A stretch of DNA of 64,000 nucleotides from positions 337,101 to 401,100 of the forward strand of contig NIVC01000946.1 in the NCBI GenBank assembly GCA_002269645.1, given 5' to 3'. A program made the position numbers and the translations under genes. Numbering within the stretch: position 1 is the stretch's first letter; the number at the start of each line of letters is the position of its first letter. The DNA is from Macrostomum lignano. Taxonomy: Eukaryota. The notes under the pieces were generated by a model. The model worked only from the letters and a program-made list of their open reading frames with translations. It was not told where the DNA came from and searched no databases. Shown piece after piece: positions 23,432 to 64,000 of this stretch.

Positions 23432-53720
<30,289 letters not shown>

Positions 53721-54215: not shown

Positions 54216-54486
54216 AGTAGTATAGAAAAAGACGCTTCTAGACCCAGAGCACTTTTTTAATGACCGTTTTAAGGGTCTAGAGGGGGGACACGGGGGGTAA
54301 ATAAAAAAACACATCTAAACACCATTAATACATCTAATCACCCATAATCACCCCTAACAATAAAAATCACTTCCAAACACTTCCAAACACTCCCCAACAC
54401 CCCCCTCGCGTCCCCCCTCTTAAGACCTTACAAACGGCCATTAAAATAAGGTCTGATCTAGAAGCGTCTTTTTCTATACTACTACT
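54216..54486. repeat. Inverted repeat of the Polinton-type terminus (arms ~54216-54298 and ~54400-54486)
   Basis: agtagtatagaaaaagacgcttctaga at 54216 versus tctagaagcgtctttttctatactactact ending at 54486. Confidence 0.85.
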
Positions 54487-54958
54487 CTACCCAACACTTC
54501 CAACACTTCCAACACTTCCAACACACCCCAACACTTCTAACACTTCAAATTCTCTATAACCCCTCGCACGCGCCGCAGGCGCGAAGGGGCACAGTCTGAC
54601 CCAAACTGAGTCATAGAAAAGGAACAGTGTTTAACTATCTTAAAGCAGCTCACAAAAAGAAAAACTTTGCATGATCACCCCAAAGGGTCGCAGACAGTAT
54701 AATGACTAACGTGGGAATTCGGGTTTCTATTATACTCATCATTTACCGAAGCGCAAACCTCAGACTCAAACTGGCTACAACAGGAAGGTGAGTTGCTTAC
54801 TCATGAAAAGCGCTTTTATTATTTTCAGCACTCCACCCCAAGCTTTAATTGTGTGTATAAGAATGATGAAATCTAAAAAACTAGCCACAGCAAATAGTCT
54901 CTTATTTATGCACAACTCCTAATATCTGTCTTTTACAAGAACTAACAAACGTATTATC

Positions 54959-55846
54959 ATGGCATCATCGAAAGAAGCAAGGATATCATCTATTGTCGAG
55001 ATTGCTACGAATTTATCAAGGAAGGATAAGTCATTAATTGGTTGCCGACTTAAAGACTTCTCGGAGAAGGAATTGGAGGCCTTACATGATAGTTTAGAAA
55101 AGTTGGATGGGGTGAGTGAAAAGAAGCCGACCACCCAAAAGAGGAAAGAGAAAGGTTATGTGGAGAATGTGCTAGAGACAATCTATCAGAAGTTAGAGGA
55201 GAACGAAGATAGAGGAGTTAGTGTGTGCGTGGAAGCGATTACACAAGGCCTATCCTACGTTGGTCTCAAGCTTGAAGGTACGACCAAACATGATTTGATT
55301 GAAAGATTTAAGAAAATAAAGTCATCTATTGAAGCTCTATCGATTGCTAAGGCAATGATGCAATTTGAGCAGGGTAGACTTATCTACTATTTAAGCACGA
55401 AGTATCGAATGACAGAGCGAGAGCTGGCCGACTCATTCAACATAACCAGCCGGAAGGTTGAGGATTATAACAAATACTATCAACTCTGCCTTGAATACCC
55501 GGGTTTAATTTTTTCTACCTATTCAATGGGCATAGTAATTAATTATAGTGCTGCGATTTTCAAGAAGGCAAACAACGATGCCAGGTTTAAGGAACTTCTC
55601 AAGATGCAACACGAGACAGTTGCTTTGGTTTTGAAAGATGGCAGTCCTGAAGAAAAGCAAGTTCACCAGTGGTATGAAGACAGTAAGTGATTGCTTCACT
55701 ATTGTGGTAATGTAAGTAAGTTCATATTTTTTAAAGCTTGCTTTTATATTGTAGCTTTCAACGAAGATCCTGACGCGGAAGACAAAGCTGAGAGCGCCGC
55801 CGAAGTCCGAGAGATGTTCGAAGGAGGAAAATGGGTTAAGAAGTAA
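54959..55846 (+). CDS. Putative HTH DNA-binding protein of the element; probably spliced, join(54959..55682,55755..55846)
   Basis: 243-aa ORF with an HTH-like MTERELADSFNITSRKVEDY segment. A GTAAGT donor at 55683 and a TTGTAG acceptor at 55754 extend it in frame with TFNEDPDAEDKAESAAEVREMFEGGKWVKK*. Confidence 0.65.
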
Positions 55847-55887
55847 ATAATTTGCGTGCTATTTCCATAACTATTAAACTGACAATC

Positions 55888-56000
55888 TTTTTAGTGTATA
55901 CATGAATTTTTCTCATAGCTTAGAAAAAATCATGTGTGTGTGTGCACCAAACTCTTTTAGTGTATACATGATTTTTTCTAAGCTATGAGAAAAATTCATG
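55888..56000. other. Pair of 34-bp imperfect palindromes in flip and flop forms
   Basis: 55901-55934 is the exact reverse complement of 55967-56000; both are preceded by ttttagtgtata. Confidence 0.9.
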
Positions 56001-56289
56001 TGCTGTTATAGACACAATGCACCGAGGACAGAGAGAAAAATGGCCATTCATCGAATAAAAAGCGTCCATTGTGCTCCAGCGGAGCAGGCCATTTGTGCCA
56101 TCGGGCACAGCCCGCGAACCATAGGTTCATTTTTGGATAGAGAATCTTTTGTGTTTGCGTCTTCTTTATTTTCTATACAAAAAAGAGTAAAAAAGAGCTA
56201 TAAAATAAAACCGCTCGAGATGCTTGCACACTACCCTTTTCTTTAGTGTCTGCAACTTAATTTTTCTGTTACTAAAAATAGAACAAAAA

Positions 56290-56625
56290 ATGACACACGT
56301 TACACATATGCAAAATCTGAACGAATTGCAGGTAGGAGACCCAGTTGAATACCGAGGTGAGGGTCTTTTTGATGTGGTTGGTACAGCAGCGAATTTCGTT
56401 AAAGACAATATGGGTCTTATAGGCCAAGCAGGCTCTGCAGCAGGTTCTATAACAAACGCTGTAAAGGGCGGAATCGAAGCAGCGAGGGCAGTAGAAGAAC
56501 TAAAGAAATTGAGAGAATTTAACGACACCCTCTCACAAATAAAAGCAATAAAAGATTTGAAACTAGCGCAGGAAACAACTCAAGCCGCACAACCAACAGA
56601 AACCCCACGAAAAGCACACCAATAA
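56290..56625 (+). CDS. Small putative virion (core/membrane-active) precursor protein, 111 aa
   Basis: ATG at 56290; the YRGEG/LFDVVGTAANFVKDNMGLIG segment looks like a GxG protease site followed by an amphipathic helix; located just before the pX-like gene. Confidence 0.55.
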   Translation: MTHVTHMQNLNELQVGDPVEYRGEGLFDVVGTAANFVKDNMGLIGQAGSAAGSITNAVKGGIEAARAVEELKKLREFNDTLSQIKAIKDLKLAQETTQAAQPTETPRKAHQ

Positions 56626-56709
56626 GTAATAAAGATATTCAGGATTTTAATAAAATGTTAACCACAATTAAAGGCGGAAAAGGATTAAAGAAATTTTAAC
56701 AATATAAAA

Positions 56710-57669
56710 ATGGACTCAGTTAATGACGAAAAACGGCTATATTTTATAGGAGAAATTGTAGATACTTTAAATCTAGACGATAATAAACATAGTCACGCAA
56801 TGTTAAAAAGATTGGATCGCTTAGGCAAAAAATTTGACTACGACATCAATACATTTAAACTTGCTGCGAAATATGCACAAGAAGGAAGACCAATATCCTT
56901 TAAGAATCATGGTAGAAATTATAGGCTGACAGACTCCGATGTAAAATTTTTATTGGAGACTCACACTAAAAAGGACGGCGGGTTGTTACCCATTTTACCA
57001 ATTCTTTTAGGACTTGGGGCAGCTGGAGCAGCTGGTTTAGCAGGAAAAAGAATTCATGATAACATAAAACAGTTAGGAGAATTAAAAGCAAAAGAAGGGG
57101 GTATATTACCCCTCGCAACTTTGCTCCCAATAATTTTTGCAGGAATTGGAGCAGCTGGAGGAGTCGCTGGAGGAGCGGCTGGAATTGCAAAAGCAGTAAA
57201 TGACAAAAAAGCCGCGGATGAAAAAGCCAAAAGAGAGGCCGAATTTCAAAGACAGCAAATAACACAGGACGCACAATTCAAACAAAAACTTATAGATACC
57301 ATTAATAGTAGTTCAGCAACAGCAGAGCAAAAAAGAAATGCAGAAGCTAAATTAGCAGCTGGAAAAGGTTTAATTTTAAAAGGAACGACCCAAGGAAGCG
57401 GAGTTGTCGCAGATAAACTACAGGAATTTGGTCAAACTTTAGAAAAAACGGGTGAGAAAGCTAAAGGATTTTTTGACAATATTGGATCCAATTTTAGACC
57501 AGCTGTTCAGAAAATTTTTAATAAGTTAGGAAAAGATTTTAACATCATTGAAAAACATGATGGAAGCGGATTATATCTCGAAATGCGACCAAAAGCAGGT
57601 TCAGGAATTTTCTTAAATTCAAACGTTATGGGAAACGGATTGCTATTACCAAAAGCAGATCTCGAATAG
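56710..57669 (+). CDS. Adenovirus pX(mu)-like / adintovirus-type core protein precursor, 319 aa
   Basis: KKDGG/LLPILPILLGLGAAGAAG and KEGG/ILPLATLLPIIFAGIGAAGGVAGGAAGIAKAVNDKK motifs, plus repeated GKGLIL / GSGLYL / GSGIFL / GNGLLL motifs. Confidence 0.72.
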   Translation: MDSVNDEKRLYFIGEIVDTLNLDDNKHSHAMLKRLDRLGKKFDYDINTFKLAAKYAQEGRPISFKNHGRNYRLTDSDVKFLLETHTKKDGGLLPILPILLGLGAAGAAGLAGKRIHDNIKQLGELKAKEGGILPLATLLPIIFAGIGAAGGVAGGAAGIAKAVNDKKAADEKAKREAEFQRQQITQDAQFKQKLIDTINSSSATAEQKRNAEAKLAAGKGLILKGTTQGSGVVADKLQEFGQTLEKTGEKAKGFFDNIGSNFRPAVQKIFNKLGKDFNIIEKHDGSGLYLEMRPKAGSGIFLNSNVMGNGLLLPKADLE

Positions 57670-57753
57670 GCTCCTGGGGGGAGGGTCTGGACACCAAAAA
57701 CACAAAATTAAAAAATCAATAATTCAAACATTATATAAATTTTATTCTATAAA

Positions 57754-60700
57754 ATGGAAGCAATTTTAGCTCAAATCGACAACCCTGAACTTAGAGCGCA
57801 ATTAATAGCTCAAATCGATGCACAACGAATTGCCGATAGGGCTGAAATAGAAGCAAGAATTAGGGCAGAAAATGAGATACGTTTAGAAAGACAATTAAAT
57901 GATATTAATAACCCCCAACCACAAGGACAAAATGGAGCTGAAGTAATATATATAGATATAGATATAAATACAAATTATAAAGAATATTTTAAACAAATGA
58001 AAGATAAATTAAAGACTATATTAAACAATTATACTATAAGGCCAAATAACAAACGACAGCCAATTAAGTATAAAATAGAAGTTGAAACAGAATTTAAAAA
58101 ACCAAATATTCTTAATGCAAATTCAGAAATTGAAGTAATAAATAACTTTTCACAAGAATCATATAAAACATTATTATCACTGGGAAATTACAACAATCAA
58201 TTCGATCAAATAGAAGCTGAGTTTGATGAATGGATAGATAAGATGACAGAAAACGGATCTGGGTTTATATTTGTTTCATGCAATTCAGCAACAGTAAAGA
58301 TTGCACCCATAGAAATTCTTAAAGGACGATCACATATGAAGCTCAAATTTAAATCACCTATGATTATAAATCCAGACAATAAAGATAATAAATGTTTATT
58401 ATGGTGTTTATTAATTCATAAATATCACAATCAAGTAGAATCACACATTAATAAAATATATAATTATAGACAATATGAGGATGAAATAATAATGAAAAAC
58501 ATATCATACCCAGTAGCAATAGATGATATATATAAGATTGAAAAAATGAATGGTTTAAATATTAATGTGTTTACAATTGAAGAACCAAAAGATCTAGAAG
58601 AAATTTTAACCGATCCAGAATGGTATAAGAAAAGGTGTTATCTTGTTAAGCCAGCAACTGATATAACAGCACCAGATCAAATCGATCTTTTGTACATGCA
58701 GCGCGAAAATGAAACACATTATATATACATAAAGATATTAGTTCTTTTTTAAGAGAAAATAGAAATAGATATCCACTATGTAGAAATTGTTTTACATTTA
58801 AAAAGGATGAAACAGCTCTTAAAAACCACCAACGATTTTGTTTAGATCACAAATTTACTAATGCTATAATGCCAGCATCTGAAGATGCAACCCTAATGTT
58901 CCAACAACATTATATGGCAGTTAAAAAACCAATAGTAATATATGCTGATTTTGAAGCAACAAATGTTCCCTTAAAAGAATCACAGACGGTATCTGATGAC
59001 GGTGAATGCACAAAAAAATTGGCACAACAGTTTCCGAATAGTTATTGTATATATGTACACTCCGTAGCTGATCATATATTTAAATCAAGGATGATTACTT
59101 ACCACGGTAATGATGCAGCTAAGCACATGGCAGAATCATTAGTAAATGTATTTGAATATATTCAAAATCAATATGATAAATTATCAAAAAATATTAATAT
59201 GACAAATAAGGATAGAGACAATTATAAAAATGCAACAAATTGTTTTATGTGCAAAAGATATTTAAGTAAGAAAAATAAGATACGAGAACATTGTCATCTA
59301 ACAGGAAATTATCGAGGGGCAGCATGTAGATCATGTAATGCAAAAGAAGGAAAAGGATGTAAGGAAATACCAGTATTTTTTCATAATGGTTCCGGATATG
59401 ATTTTCATTTCTTAGTTCGAGAATTGCTTCATTTAGGAAAGGATGAATATGAAATAAATATATTACCTAAAACATCAGAAAATTACATATCAATAACATA
59501 TGGTAAGAAATACTCCCATCTAGTTTTTCTAGATTCCTTGAGATTCTTATCAACATCTTTAGCAAATGTTGTTTCATCATTAGTTCCAAAACCATGGGAT
59601 TTAGAAATAGTAAAGAAAAACTTTCCAATCTTATTGAATCGTTTCAAAAAAGAAAAACTATCCGAGGAAGAACTAATGCTATTAACTCGTAAGGGCATCT
59701 ACCCATATGAATATGTAACATCTGAAGACGTATTTTTTCATACCGAATTACCACCCATAGAAAAGTTTTATTCAACATTATCACAAACAAATATAAGTGA
59801 ATCGGATTATGAACACGCTCAAAAAGTATGGAAATACTTTAATTGTAAAACATTTAAAGATTATCATAATCTATATCTTAAAGCAGATGTTCTCCTATTA
59901 GCTGATGCATTTGAAAACTTTAGGAATCATACATATGAGAATTTTAAAATTGATCCCGCATATTGTTTCAGTGCACCGGGATTAACATGGGCTTGTGGTT
60001 TGAAATACACAGATGTTAAGATTGATTTACTAACTGATCATGATATGTTGTTAATGATTGAGAGAGGAATTCGCGGCGGATTCTCAGGTGTACTAGGAGA
60101 TAGATATACTAAAGTAAATAATAAGTATCTTCCAAATTATAATAAAAAAGAAAAATCATCATATGTATTATATCTAGATGCAAACAATTTATACGGTGGT
60201 TGTATGAAACAAAAATTACCAATAGCTGATTTCCAATGGGAAGATGACCCCGATTATTACAAAAATATTCCCGAAGGAAGGGGCTGTATCGTAGAAGTGG
60301 ATTTGCAATATACTCGGGAAGCAAAAGCAAAAACATATAAATATCCTTTAGCTCCAGAGCATTGTTCAGTTAATGAAGATGATTTATCACAAACACAAAA
60401 AGATTATCTTAAAGCAGATAATGCAAAACATCTAGCAACAAAAAAATTAATATTAAATTTACATGATAAGAAAAACTATGTAGTGCATTATAAGCTTCTA
60501 CAATTTTATGAAAAAGGGATTAAAAGTGTCTAAAGTACATCGAACAATATCGTTTATTGAGGAAGATTGGTTAGCTAAATATATTGACTTTAATTCAAAT
60601 CAGAGACAGATGTCAAAAACAAATTTTGAGAAAGATTATTGGAAATTAATGAATAATGCTTTTTATGGAAAAACGGTTGAAAATATTAGAGATAGAACCC

Positions 60701-61740
60701 AATTCCATTTAGAAAAGGATATTGATAAAGCAAAGAAATATTTCTCAAAACCTAACTTTAAAGACTTTATAAAATTTGATGATAACTTTATGGGTATTCA
60801 TATGAGAAATAAAACAACAAAATTTCTTAAACCAATATTTATTGGAATGGTTGTTTTAGATTATGCAAAGCTGTAATGTATGAATATTATTATGATGTTA
60901 TAAATAAAACATGGCCAGATAACTATCCAATATATGCAGACACCGACAGTTTGGTATTTAAGGTTGAAACAGAGGATCGGGCAAAGCCGCGAACCAAAGG
61001 TTCGATGTCTATAAAGATATGGAAAAAATTAAGGATACATTGGATACCTCCGACTATCCGGATAACCATCCTTTAAAATCAGATCAAAATAAAAAAGTTG
61101 TACTTAAAATGAAAGATGAATTAAATAGCAAAATCATAACCGAGTTTATAGCAATAAGATCAAAATGCTATGCATTTAAGGTTTTAGGACAGGAGGGAGA
61201 GGTAAAAAAAATAAAAGGGTATCAAGAGCAGCAGTAAAAAAGATAACATTTGATGATTATAAAAACGTACTTTTAGATTACCTTAATACAATTGAAAATT
61301 ATCATGCTCCACAATATCGATTAAATTCAGATAAGCATCAGATGTTTGTCATCGAGACAGATAAAAAAACATTAAGTCCATTTGATGATAAAAGATATTT
61401 AGATGATAAAATTAAAACATATCCATATGGTTTAAAAGAAGAGATAAAAAATATGATAAAAGATAAAAAACAAAAAGAAGATATAATAAGTAAATATAAT
61501 GAATACAAAGCGGCAATAAATAATTATTATTACGATTGTGATTGTGAATCCGAATGTGATTGTGAATATAATACATTTCTAGAATATGAAAAAGATATAG
61601 ATAATTATTATTCAACATTTCCAAAAGAACTTAAAAAATTAAATAAGGAAAAAGTCTTGAATAACTGGAAGAGATTAACAGAAAAATTACTTATCGGGTC
61701 TGTAAAAACTAAAGCATGTAATTGTTTAGCAAATCATTAA
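57754..61740 (+). pseudogene. polB: Protein-primed family B DNA polymerase (pPolB), ~1330 codons, broken by five frameshifts (real lesions or assembly indels)
   Basis: VIYADFE (ExoI), REHCHLTGNYRGAACRSCN, FHNGSGYDFH (ExoII), KGIYPYEY, YLKADVLLLADAFE (ExoIII), GIRGG, YLDANNLYG (motif A), KLMNNAFYGK (motif B), YADTDS (motif C), LSPFDDKRY. Frame breaks near 58733, 60510, 60874, 61000 and 61220. Confidence 0.95.
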
Positions 61741-61827
61741 CTTCAATTTCATATATTATTGAGCACCAATTATCCTCACAGTCGGCAGGGTAACTTAAAC
61801 AATCCTTTATTTTTTTCCTAAGTTTTT

Positions 61828-62043
61828 TTATTTTTCTAACCAACTATCTATTTCAATTTCAATTACTATTTCAGCATAAACAATATCTTGTCTTAAAAAA
61901 CGTTTTCTTTTATCTATCTCATATCGGATGGGAAACATATCGTCCCCATACTCATGATATTTCTGAGATATAATTATATTTATTTTTTTATTAATATCAT
62001 TAAGTTCACGCTCTTTAGTGATAAGGATTTTTATCGTATCCAT
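61828..62043 (-). CDS. Small hypothetical protein of the element (71 aa)
   Basis: ATG ORF with the element's AT-rich codon usage, preceded by tataagaaaATG. Confidence 0.4.
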   Translation of the reverse strand: MDTIKILITKERELNDINKKINIIISQKYHEYGDDMFPIRYEIDKRKRFLRQDIVYAEIVIEIEIDSWLEK

Positions 62044-62058
62044 TTTCTTATAAAAAAT

Positions 62059-62389
62059 TTAGTCTTCGTCGTCATCCTCCCAAACAGCCGCCAATTTTAC
62101 AGTCCTATCACTCTTTTTATTATTTGTTTGTTTTAGTTTAAATTGCAATCCACCCTCGTTGCAGTATTTCATAACAAACGCTTTAGGTTTATTAATAACT
62201 AAAACAGGAAAATTTTTAACATCATCTCCGCTTAGACATAAAATTTTTGCCCATCTAATTGTAAAAATATTGATTGAAGCCAATAAATTTAACCTGTCTC
62301 AAACATAATATTATATTCTTTATTCTCCAACATATTGGGTGTGAGATAATTAATCACATTAGAATCGGTTTTGAACCAGCTCTCCATTT
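62059..62389 (-). CDS. Small hypothetical protein(s) of the element, possibly one frameshifted gene (MESWFKTDSN... / ...WAKILCLSGDDVKNFPVLVINKP...WEDDDED)
   Basis: Two abutting minus-strand ORFs in different frames. Confidence 0.35.
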
Positions 62390-62907
62390 TTAATCTAAAA
62401 AATAAAAAAAAATGAAAGACATTTATGTTTGTAATAAATGTAATGTGACTATGCACAGAGGGCAAACAGCAAACGGAGATATATATCATATGTGTTATTC
62501 ATGTTCTAAAATATATCAATTTGAAAAAACAAAAAAGATTGAAAACTCATATTACTATTTTAAAAAACAATTTTAAGAAATCTTACAAGAGACATTTCTG
62601 ATCCAATTTTAATTCCCGGAAATAATGTTTATTTATATAATAACTTTTTCCATTTAAATAAAGGAAAGGGATTAAGTTCGAAAGACTCCGAAAGGATTTT
62701 AATTTTAGTTGGATATTATTTCAATTTTCTTATTCGAGAGAATACAAAGTTTATAAGGATAGGTAACATACCTAACGAAATGTTACTGAAAAAGTCATTG
62801 GAATTTTTATGTATTGATAAAAAATTTAAACCTAGAATCAGAAGAGAGTTACCACTTTGGGAAGAATATATAACATATGCATTAAATAAATTAAACAACA
62901 TTAAGTT

Positions 62908-63521
62908 CTACAGCACTTCCTGACCGCGGGCTTTGTGCCCAGTAGCAATAGTTTCAGGTTCGTAAATGCCTAATGTTTCTATCGGTGGAGCTTTGGGTTT
63001 ATCGAGTCTCAACTCTTTTAATTCCATATCGGTAAAAGTTTCAACATCTAAAATTCTATTTCTATCTTTTAAATATTTTTCATATAATTCAACCGCGGTT
63101 GATAATTCATGAATCGTTATCTCTCCGTCATCCAATATTTTTTGCACATATAAATATAATGATTTTTATATTGCTTGGCAACATCTCTTAAAGATTTATA
63201 TTTTTCCTTTCTTTTTTTAAGATATAATTTAATTGCTAAAAGTATTGATAAGTTCCTGATCAATTCAAAACCTGATATTGAGCCAATTGAAATACCTAAA
63301 AATAATTGAGATAAATTAAGAGTTGGAATAGATTGTAAAATACCTAAAACGATTACACATAACATTGATAAGCTTCCAAATCCAATATTGAAAAAATCCA
63401 TATTTCTTATATGGTTTGAAACTCTTCTTACTTTTTTAGTATATAAATCATAATCATAGTTAATACGATCAACATTACTTAACATCTGACCTTTACGTTG
63501 GTTGAACCGGTCGCGTTCCAT
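62908..63521 (-). pseudogene. Two-TM membrane protein of the element, split by a frameshift near 63147
   Basis: ORF 63117-63521 has two hydrophobic helices (FFNIGFGSLSMLCVIVLGIL; LFLGISIGSISGFELI) followed by a basic stretch, and overlaps ORF 62908-63147 (QKILDDGEITIHELSTAVELYEKY). Confidence 0.55.
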
Positions 63522-63629
63522 TTATCTGCTTCAGATACCGACATTCTCGTCTATTTTTAATAGCACCAAAATGAATTCCCCACGCTCTTTGGGGATTTGT
63601 CCCGAGCTCAATAGGTATTGTATTGGAGT

Positions 63630-63857
63630 TTATTCTTTCTTTTTTCTCCATTTAAATCCTATTTTCCAAAACTCTTGAAGTATAATATGATTTTTTAATA
63701 ACTTAATTAATTCTTGAAGTTTCTTATTATCCTGAACATTTACAGTACTAAATAAAAATTTGGTATGAGATTTGAATGTTTTTATATTTGATTCTTGTTT
63801 AGGAATAGGAATAATAACATTATTTTGCCGCATCGATGGAGTTCTACTAAAAGCCAT
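63630..63857 (-). CDS. Small basic hypothetical protein of the element (75 aa)
   Basis: ATG ORF preceded by TATATAAAATG. Confidence 0.4.
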   Translation of the reverse strand: MAFSRTPSMRQNNVIIPIPKQESNIKTFKSHTKFLFSTVNVQDNKKLQELIKLLKNHIILQEFWKIGFKWRKKKE

Positions 63858-64000
63858 TTTATATATAAATATTTAAGTTATTTCGGTTTGTGGCCGTTCC
63901 AAATATGCGGTCGCAGCAAAATCATATCCTGCTGATGTGCTACCACAAACGGCTGCACACGAATAAAATGTGCAGCATCCGATCCTCGCAGTTCGAGCAC

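Follow-up and report, generated by a model that had tools for sequence, protein, structure and literature searches.

The window analysed here, a 64,000-nucleotide stretch of Macrostomum lignano DNA, contains one end of a Polinton/Maverick element, and within this element a pair of palindromes lies behind a small spliced gene (Table 1). The virus-like element proposed in the original prediction is borne out as a Polinton with AGTAGT ends, a 6-bp target duplication and an rve integrase. Because the window copy is cut off by the contig end, the full element was described from sister copies, which are 18-20 kb long and have AGTAGT ends, 6-bp target duplications and capsid-sized ORFs. One sister copy bearing the pair (C1867) retains both ends and the 6-bp duplication, and another copy (C2221) has both ends and no matching duplication. 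ORFs of 1324, 490, 261 and 175 aa are arranged as expected for a Polinton. Pfam names only the Endonuclease VII domain among the polymerase-, capsid- and protease-sized ORFs, and the three identities are ones that we take from familiar motifs and synteny. In copy C77, rve was matched at E 2e-7 (just below the cut-off) and Pox_A32 at E 4e-7 (above the cut-off). The polymerase of another copy is a single 1324-aa frame with an Endonuclease VII/HNH domain; the polymerase gene of the window copy is split into several frames. The nuclease domains found among the 14 ORFs of a full copy are the Endonuclease VII/HNH domain and an Eco47II-like domain. The Eco47II-like restriction nuclease ORF lies near the right end (L050, 8174-8689; E 2e-4, below the cut-off).

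Table 1. Features of the Polinton left end and the palindrome pair in the window (dot, no strand assigned).
Feature	Position	Strand	Basis or remark
Left end: AGTAGT terminus and terminal inverted repeat, with inward mirror copy of its own tip	54216..54490	.	Fold-back of ~270 bp
Accessory gene, exon 1; predicted HTH (residues 153-179) and long dimerisation helix (residues 110-149)	54959..55682	+	
Intron, 72 nt, GT..AG	55683..55754	+	Skipped in contigs of 4/4 RNA-like runs
Exon 2, acidic tail, stop 55844-55846	55755..55846	+	Sequence; agrees with C-terminus of P0001
Leader copy 1 (12-nt direct repeat)	55889..55900	+	Sequence
Palindrome unit 1, inverted (derived) copy	55901..55934	.	Comparison with sister copies
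Linker, 20 nt	55935..55954	+	Homologous in inverted and direct subfamilies; inverted in 0/14
Leader copy 2 (12 nt)	55955..55966	+	Sequence
Palindrome unit 2	55967..56000	.	Orientation as in single-unit, direct-pair and outgroup copies
Downstream ORFs: 111 aa without assignment; core-protein-X-like, 319 aa	56290..57669	+	Candidate regulation targets
Presumed protein-primed family B polymerase with Endonuclease VII/HNH	57754..61740	+	Pfam names nuclease domain only

The fold-back at the left end is found at both ends of full copies, with 288 arm matches genome-wide, and from copy to copy its two arms vary in concert; in a single insertion (L223/L224), the inner terminal arm has been partly overwritten by outer-arm sequence. 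The order of outer and inner arms is constant in the six full copies with both ends matched, indicating that there is no flip/flop at these ends. Outside the element, a minus-strand host gene at 37700-53700, which resembles an inositol-trisphosphate/ryanodine receptor, has introns filled with microsatellites, and some 500 bp separate the start of the Polinton from the first ORF-like segment of this gene.

The two 34-bp units are exact reverse complements of each other, as originally claimed, and the match can be extended by one base on either side to 36 bp (55900-55935 and 55966-56001). Each unit is an imperfect palindrome of a 13-bp arm, an 8-bp centre and a 13-bp arm with one arm mismatch; the identical leader before both units is likewise confirmed, and the period is 66 bp. 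At all eight orientation-informative positions, unit 1 agrees with the reverse complement of unit 2. The 36-bp match exceeds every other exact inverted repeat at 54501-64000 (gaps up to ~260 bp) and is not a chance product: the longest repeats in 100 local 2-mer-block shuffles reached at most 14 bp, with a mean of 11.6. Exact symmetry around the pair stops after 36 bp, the flanking repeats are direct and not inverted, and the pair lies internally, 1685 bp from the left terminus (54216).

The pair had been placed at the boundary between an HTH gene and a block of structural genes. It does adjoin the HTH gene, but it lies inside the 3' UTR of that gene, given the splicing and stop described below. 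The supposed structural block consists of an ORF without assignment, the core-protein-X-like ORF (Adeno_PX E 0.022, below the cut-off) and the polymerase; the capsid-module genes lie at least 10 kb further on, on the other strand. Just beyond the pair, at 56072-56135, three small GC-rich hairpins are followed by a T run (z -2.96); these hairpins are retained in copies with other cargo alleles and had no Rfam or tRNA match.

The accessory gene corresponds to a spliced database protein of Macrostomum lignano (P0001, 271 aa) with 98% identity. Splicing was seen in four runs from four studies, whose RNA status was guessed (none of the runs containing the sequence is registered as RNA) and whose reads may derive from any copy, and in three of the four the spliced contigs extend into unit 1, to 55929. 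The C-terminal 144 residues were modelled with a pLDDT of 90.6, and the N-terminal part was predicted as short helices of low confidence that matched generic bundles. A structure search with the model returned ParB-family DNA-binding domains in eight of the top 12 rows (KorB twice, SopB twice, Spo0J, P1 ParB, ParB-parS and VirB), aligned over about 80 residues at Z 5.7-7.1, all under the Z of 8 taken as the level of trust. The best match was KorB (Z 7.1, rmsd 3.3, 81 residues aligned); identities to the ParB-type folds are 9-14%, and other HTH proteins align over about 50 residues. Foldseek searches of the PDB and of viral models gave nothing at E <= 0.001, a profile search of PDB sequences gave nothing under E 0.07, and a feature-based atlas search returned only unnamed clusters at 0.91. 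Pfam named no HTH family at its cut-off in the window ORFs, 17 homologs or 48 of 93 distant representatives. Members of the protein family number 75 matches here in the genome and 93 clusters among public sequences, of which none of the 48 scanned carries a Pfam name; one scan of viral contigs for the DNA context of homologs from other organisms yielded nothing. In the model, the DNA-binding domain ranks closest to those of ParB, KorB and SopB, at modest Z.

The protein is also predicted to form an HTH homodimer. The homodimer score was 0.76, against 0.01 for the best of three controls, and the dimer runs agreed in at least 88% of contacts at pLDDT of at least 77, with an interface formed by an antiparallel helix centred on residue 127. 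In calibration, 21 of 30 solved pairs attained this mark but none of 23 single chains did; among eukaryotic proteins the figures were 17/29 and 0/30, respectively. A scan for heat-shock elements found none upstream of the window gene or of L049, with matches in L159 and L141.

Two pattern searches and a DNA search collected 14 two-unit copies, in all of which the linker is homologous and in none of which it is turned. In eight young copies (98-100% identical), some of which are duplicates of one insertion (C5134 has the flank of the window copy), unit 1 differs from the reverse complement of unit 2 by 0-1 mismatches. Three older copies have the centre of unit 1 inverted with 3-5 mismatches, mostly in the arms. 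In the remaining three, both units are direct, with 6-7 mismatches and a different centre common to both units. The inverted arrangement is confined to one sub-lineage (11/14 two-unit copies), with direct pairs in 3/14. In addition, three copies have a single unit, seven have a single palindrome with a 26-bp centre, and one is cut after the left arm.

The original prediction had proposed searching other copies for the motif and for flip/flop variation, and both parts gave a qualified answer: the motif is present in a minority (8 of 87 family left ends carry the pair), and inverted, part-inverted and direct states were found. Of five full-length copies inspected that lack the module, four show perfect 6-bp target duplications. 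Given this low carriage and the perfect duplications of site-less copies, the pair is not needed in cis for copying or integration. The two outcomes that had been named as speaking against the original prediction largely describe what was found, as related copies of full length lack the motif and the inversion arose locally. As a separate observation, the whole gene-plus-site module (54589-56260 in the window) is missing from many copies, with the corresponding joint present in 4/4 runs and with 27 exact matches to the junction; in L046 and L049 a distant allele that has a different palindrome takes its place.

These graded copy states fit a tandem duplication followed by a template-switch inversion of unit 1, which we consider the likely history from comparison of the copies. 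One palindrome would have been duplicated together with its leader, a segment of about 60-66 bp, and two direct palindrome copies would already give a long imperfect fold-back. A copying strand could then take the opposite arm as its template, so that the centre of unit 1 was inverted first and its arm mismatches were inverted later; unit 1 may have flipped locally on its own arms or been overwritten from unit 2. The hairpin formed between the units becomes more stable along this series, with z -3.37 for the direct form, -6.07 for the intermediate and -12.2 for the window form. Direct orientation is likely to be the older state, as an outgroup family with 54% protein identity has direct pairs with a centre that starts like that of unit 2. 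Arm overwriting is also visible in the terminal fold-back of the family, in the single insertion noted above. Published work shows that template switching at inverted repeats can invert the spacer and make the two arms alike (PMC8604942; PMC10710096). Since the site is nearly symmetric, a protein would bind it in either orientation, and the flip would be close to neutral. Of the flank trees, the upstream one omits the direct-pair copies and the outgroup (too little overlap) and the downstream one conflicts; the disagreement between the gene tree and the downstream tree points to recombination among the copies, and the trees do not settle which event came first.

The palindrome itself has a wider distribution than the pair. 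Its outer-arm pattern matches 121 sites genome-wide, compared with 0 for a control pattern, and tandem arrays of 1-24 units occur in other Polinton families and in gene-less derivatives. Direct arrays of 2-4 units, with a 40- or 60-bp period, stand behind 54%-identical homologs of the accessory protein in other Polinton families. When the 3' region of the window gene was compared with L141 or L144, the best eight alignments in each case all fell on the palindromes; the outer arms are constant letter for letter across this 54% protein identity, in flanks that cannot be aligned. Flipped units are rare in the other family (1/66 across 16 arrays). All 12 array loci examined, which were 12 of the first 15 contigs among the matches listed, lack the gene within 6-8 kb, and the 10 in which gene loss was traceable have a shared deletion. 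One gene-less copy (L207, G000:C1377:95511 onward) has 24 identical 60-bp units.

Behind more distant homologs lie different palindromes, including an 18-mer in 119-bp units and words based on CAGGAA, TCCAGAA and TCCTGGA. A repeated or long palindrome lies within 1 kb behind 9/15 gene lineages, compared with 1/90 shuffles and 2/36 Polinton body tiles, a score for which the thresholds were chosen after data inspection, the lineages are related and 6/15 did not score. Two starred protein clades (99/99) differ both in their predicted recognition helices and in their motif classes, a correspondence that amounts to two data points; moreover, gene and site, being neighbours, would be passed on jointly even if they did not interact. 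In L147, the ACATG array 3' of the gene is followed directly by 89-bp palindrome units of a different HTH clade, as in stacked cassettes. About 200 bp before the array in L144-L147 there are two words that we take to be TATA-like and similar to a Pol III box B, respectively, and ARAGORN found nothing in six loci, L144 and L145 included.

The reading favoured here, to which a probability of roughly 60% is assigned, is that the locus holds an optional cassette in which a gene for a predicted HTH dimer travels with its own putative operator array, most likely regulating left-end promoters, and that the flip is a near-neutral product of template switching. The bound dimer would make the array an optional operator or enhancer for the promoters of its own gene and of the unit encoding the core protein and polymerase, and the dimer could serve gene-less copies in trans. 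Among the options raised originally, a double operator for the HTH protein thus stands, in predicted form, as the best reading, and the hairpin end, resolution site and nicking origin do not. Against the double operator, the centre between the outer 10-mers is 14, 16 or 26 bp long, which sits uneasily with one rigid dimer, and the inner positions co-vary, as in a folded structure.

This compensatory change of inner positions between families is consistent with a different source of selection, namely that a host factor binds the palindrome, or that the DNA secondary structure itself acts, with the HTH protein binding elsewhere and the duplication and flip unchanged. The arrays also outlive the gene, in the 12 loci described and in gene-less single-site copies, and the right end of each unit reads CATGTG, presumably an E-box-like word. 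We nevertheless regard a host factor or DNA structure as rather unlikely, as the motif class switches with the protein clade and the outer arms stay identical across 54% protein identity where the flanks are unalignable. A further version, drawn by analogy, would keep the protein and alter its task: the spliced gene for a ParB-type dimer and a centromere-like array would form an exchangeable partition-like cassette, with clade-specific pairs, which tethers or licenses free copies and serves gene-less ones in trans. We give this idea a low probability.

The inversion might instead have been favoured for what it does in the transcript, where the 3' UTR would form a perfect RNA stem of 36 bp that could act as a Drosha/Dicer substrate or as a brake on the mRNA. 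The spliced contigs that enter unit 1 and the strong RNA fold (z -12.2) agree with such a role; miRNA-precursor models fit the shape, all of them below the gathering score (best 51.9 of 101 bits, Rfam), and template switching is a described way in which miRNA stems arise anew (PMC10710096). Pairs in direct orientation, single units and long arrays of direct units occur nonetheless, and the near absence of flipped units from the other family speaks against selection for a stem, so that this explanation seems improbable.

Most family members lack the pair, and hairpins are mutational hot spots, so the pair could also be functionless debris of local duplication and inversion. That verdict suits the flip and does not suit the palindrome, since a single site has been kept across Polinton families in unalignable flanks and repeatedly amplified; for the pair as a whole it is very unlikely. 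The 13+8+13 geometry is that of loxP and FRT sites, which raises the question of inverted sites for a tyrosine recombinase. The one arm mismatch, the centre sequence common to both units within each subfamily and the presence of at least 103 tyrosine-recombinase domains in the genome would agree. No recombinase was found among the 14 ORFs of a full copy, though, and none of the 103 matches lies inside the four full copies mapped; the linker is turned in 0/11 inverted pairs (0/14 two-unit copies), and the 8-bp spacer, fixed in the window family, gives way to 14- or 26-bp centres in relatives. Such recombinase sites are hardly credible.

The original proposal, that the pair is a hairpin telomere taken up by the element, a site for resolving concatemers or an origin for nicking, is equally hard to sustain: the pair does contain an AT-rich mismatched hairpin in both reverse-complement isomers and the Endonuclease VII/HNH domain of the polymerase might cut cruciforms, but the internal position, the direct flanks, the dispensability of the pair (8/87), the integration of site-less copies and the lack of any Pfam match to a resolvase, protelomerase or HUH protein among 14 ORFs (several without assignment) all stand against it. 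Sequencing-run contigs contained no strand-change joint at the pair, a result given no weight here because assembly into contigs merges exact repeats of 36 bp and loses rare variants.

The comparison with poxvirus telomeres is instructive on this point. Flip/flop telomeres, too, have an AT-rich mismatched hairpin that exists as two isomers, each the reverse complement of the other, and the concatemer junction is described as an inverted repeat between two resolution sites that is cut by a resolvase (PMC8956199). Here, in contrast, the isomers are not terminal, stand in tandem on one strand between direct flanks and are dispensable, and no resolvase was found. Hairpin-telomere replication in a Polinton is not what the pair shows.

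Closer parallels are found among binding-site arrays. Baculovirus homologous regions, the counterpart of IE1, comprise 64-bp units with a 24-bp imperfect palindrome (PMC4535591). The Polinton array resembles them in its short tandem units of ~60-66 bp with imperfect palindromes and in its proposed viral dimeric binder, and differs in being one dispensable array per element beside the gene of the candidate binder; no homology is claimed. The likeness to SopB with sopC and to KorB with its operator lies in the modelled ParB-type domain of an HTH plus helices (at modest Z) and in the layout, with direct repeats behind the gene and an inverted repeat inside every one of them (PMC3177203). Unlike plasmid partition systems, the Polinton cassette has a eukaryotic spliced gene and a dimer predicted to form through an antiparallel helix before the HTH, with no ParB N-terminal CTPase domain matched and no ParA among 14 ORFs. 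By analogy, the array would work most like baculovirus homologous regions or like sopC with SopB, and by the tests run it is a member of neither.

The element otherwise resembles Polintons with pPolB2 in its size of ~18-20 kb, terminal inverted repeats, 6-bp duplication, presumed pPolB with HNH/EndoVII, rve integrase and A32-type ATPase (10.1101/2023.08.22.554363; PMC11296320); that pPolB2 includes HNH domains is already established (10.1101/2023.08.22.554363). It differs from them in the optional spliced HTH gene and the palindrome array near the left end. No evident description of such a cassette in Polintons was found in the open literature, and repeat databases may hold such families.

As a mutation, the flip is ordinary. 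Where arms exceed 9 bp, template switching is reported to turn the spacer round and equalise the arms, ending in a perfect stem (PMC8604942; PMC10710096). What sets the window pair apart is that the change would have affected a palindrome already duplicated in tandem, inside a mobile element whose sister copies retain the intermediates, and this preservation makes it a clean example of template switching in such an element. The combination of a small viral predicted HTH dimer with a short, clade-specific candidate site lends itself to a direct binding test, for which the natural variants (the flip, the direct pair, the single unit and the sites of other clades) provide built-in controls. The outcome would bear on how Polintons control their genes and on how free copies may be kept in the nucleus.
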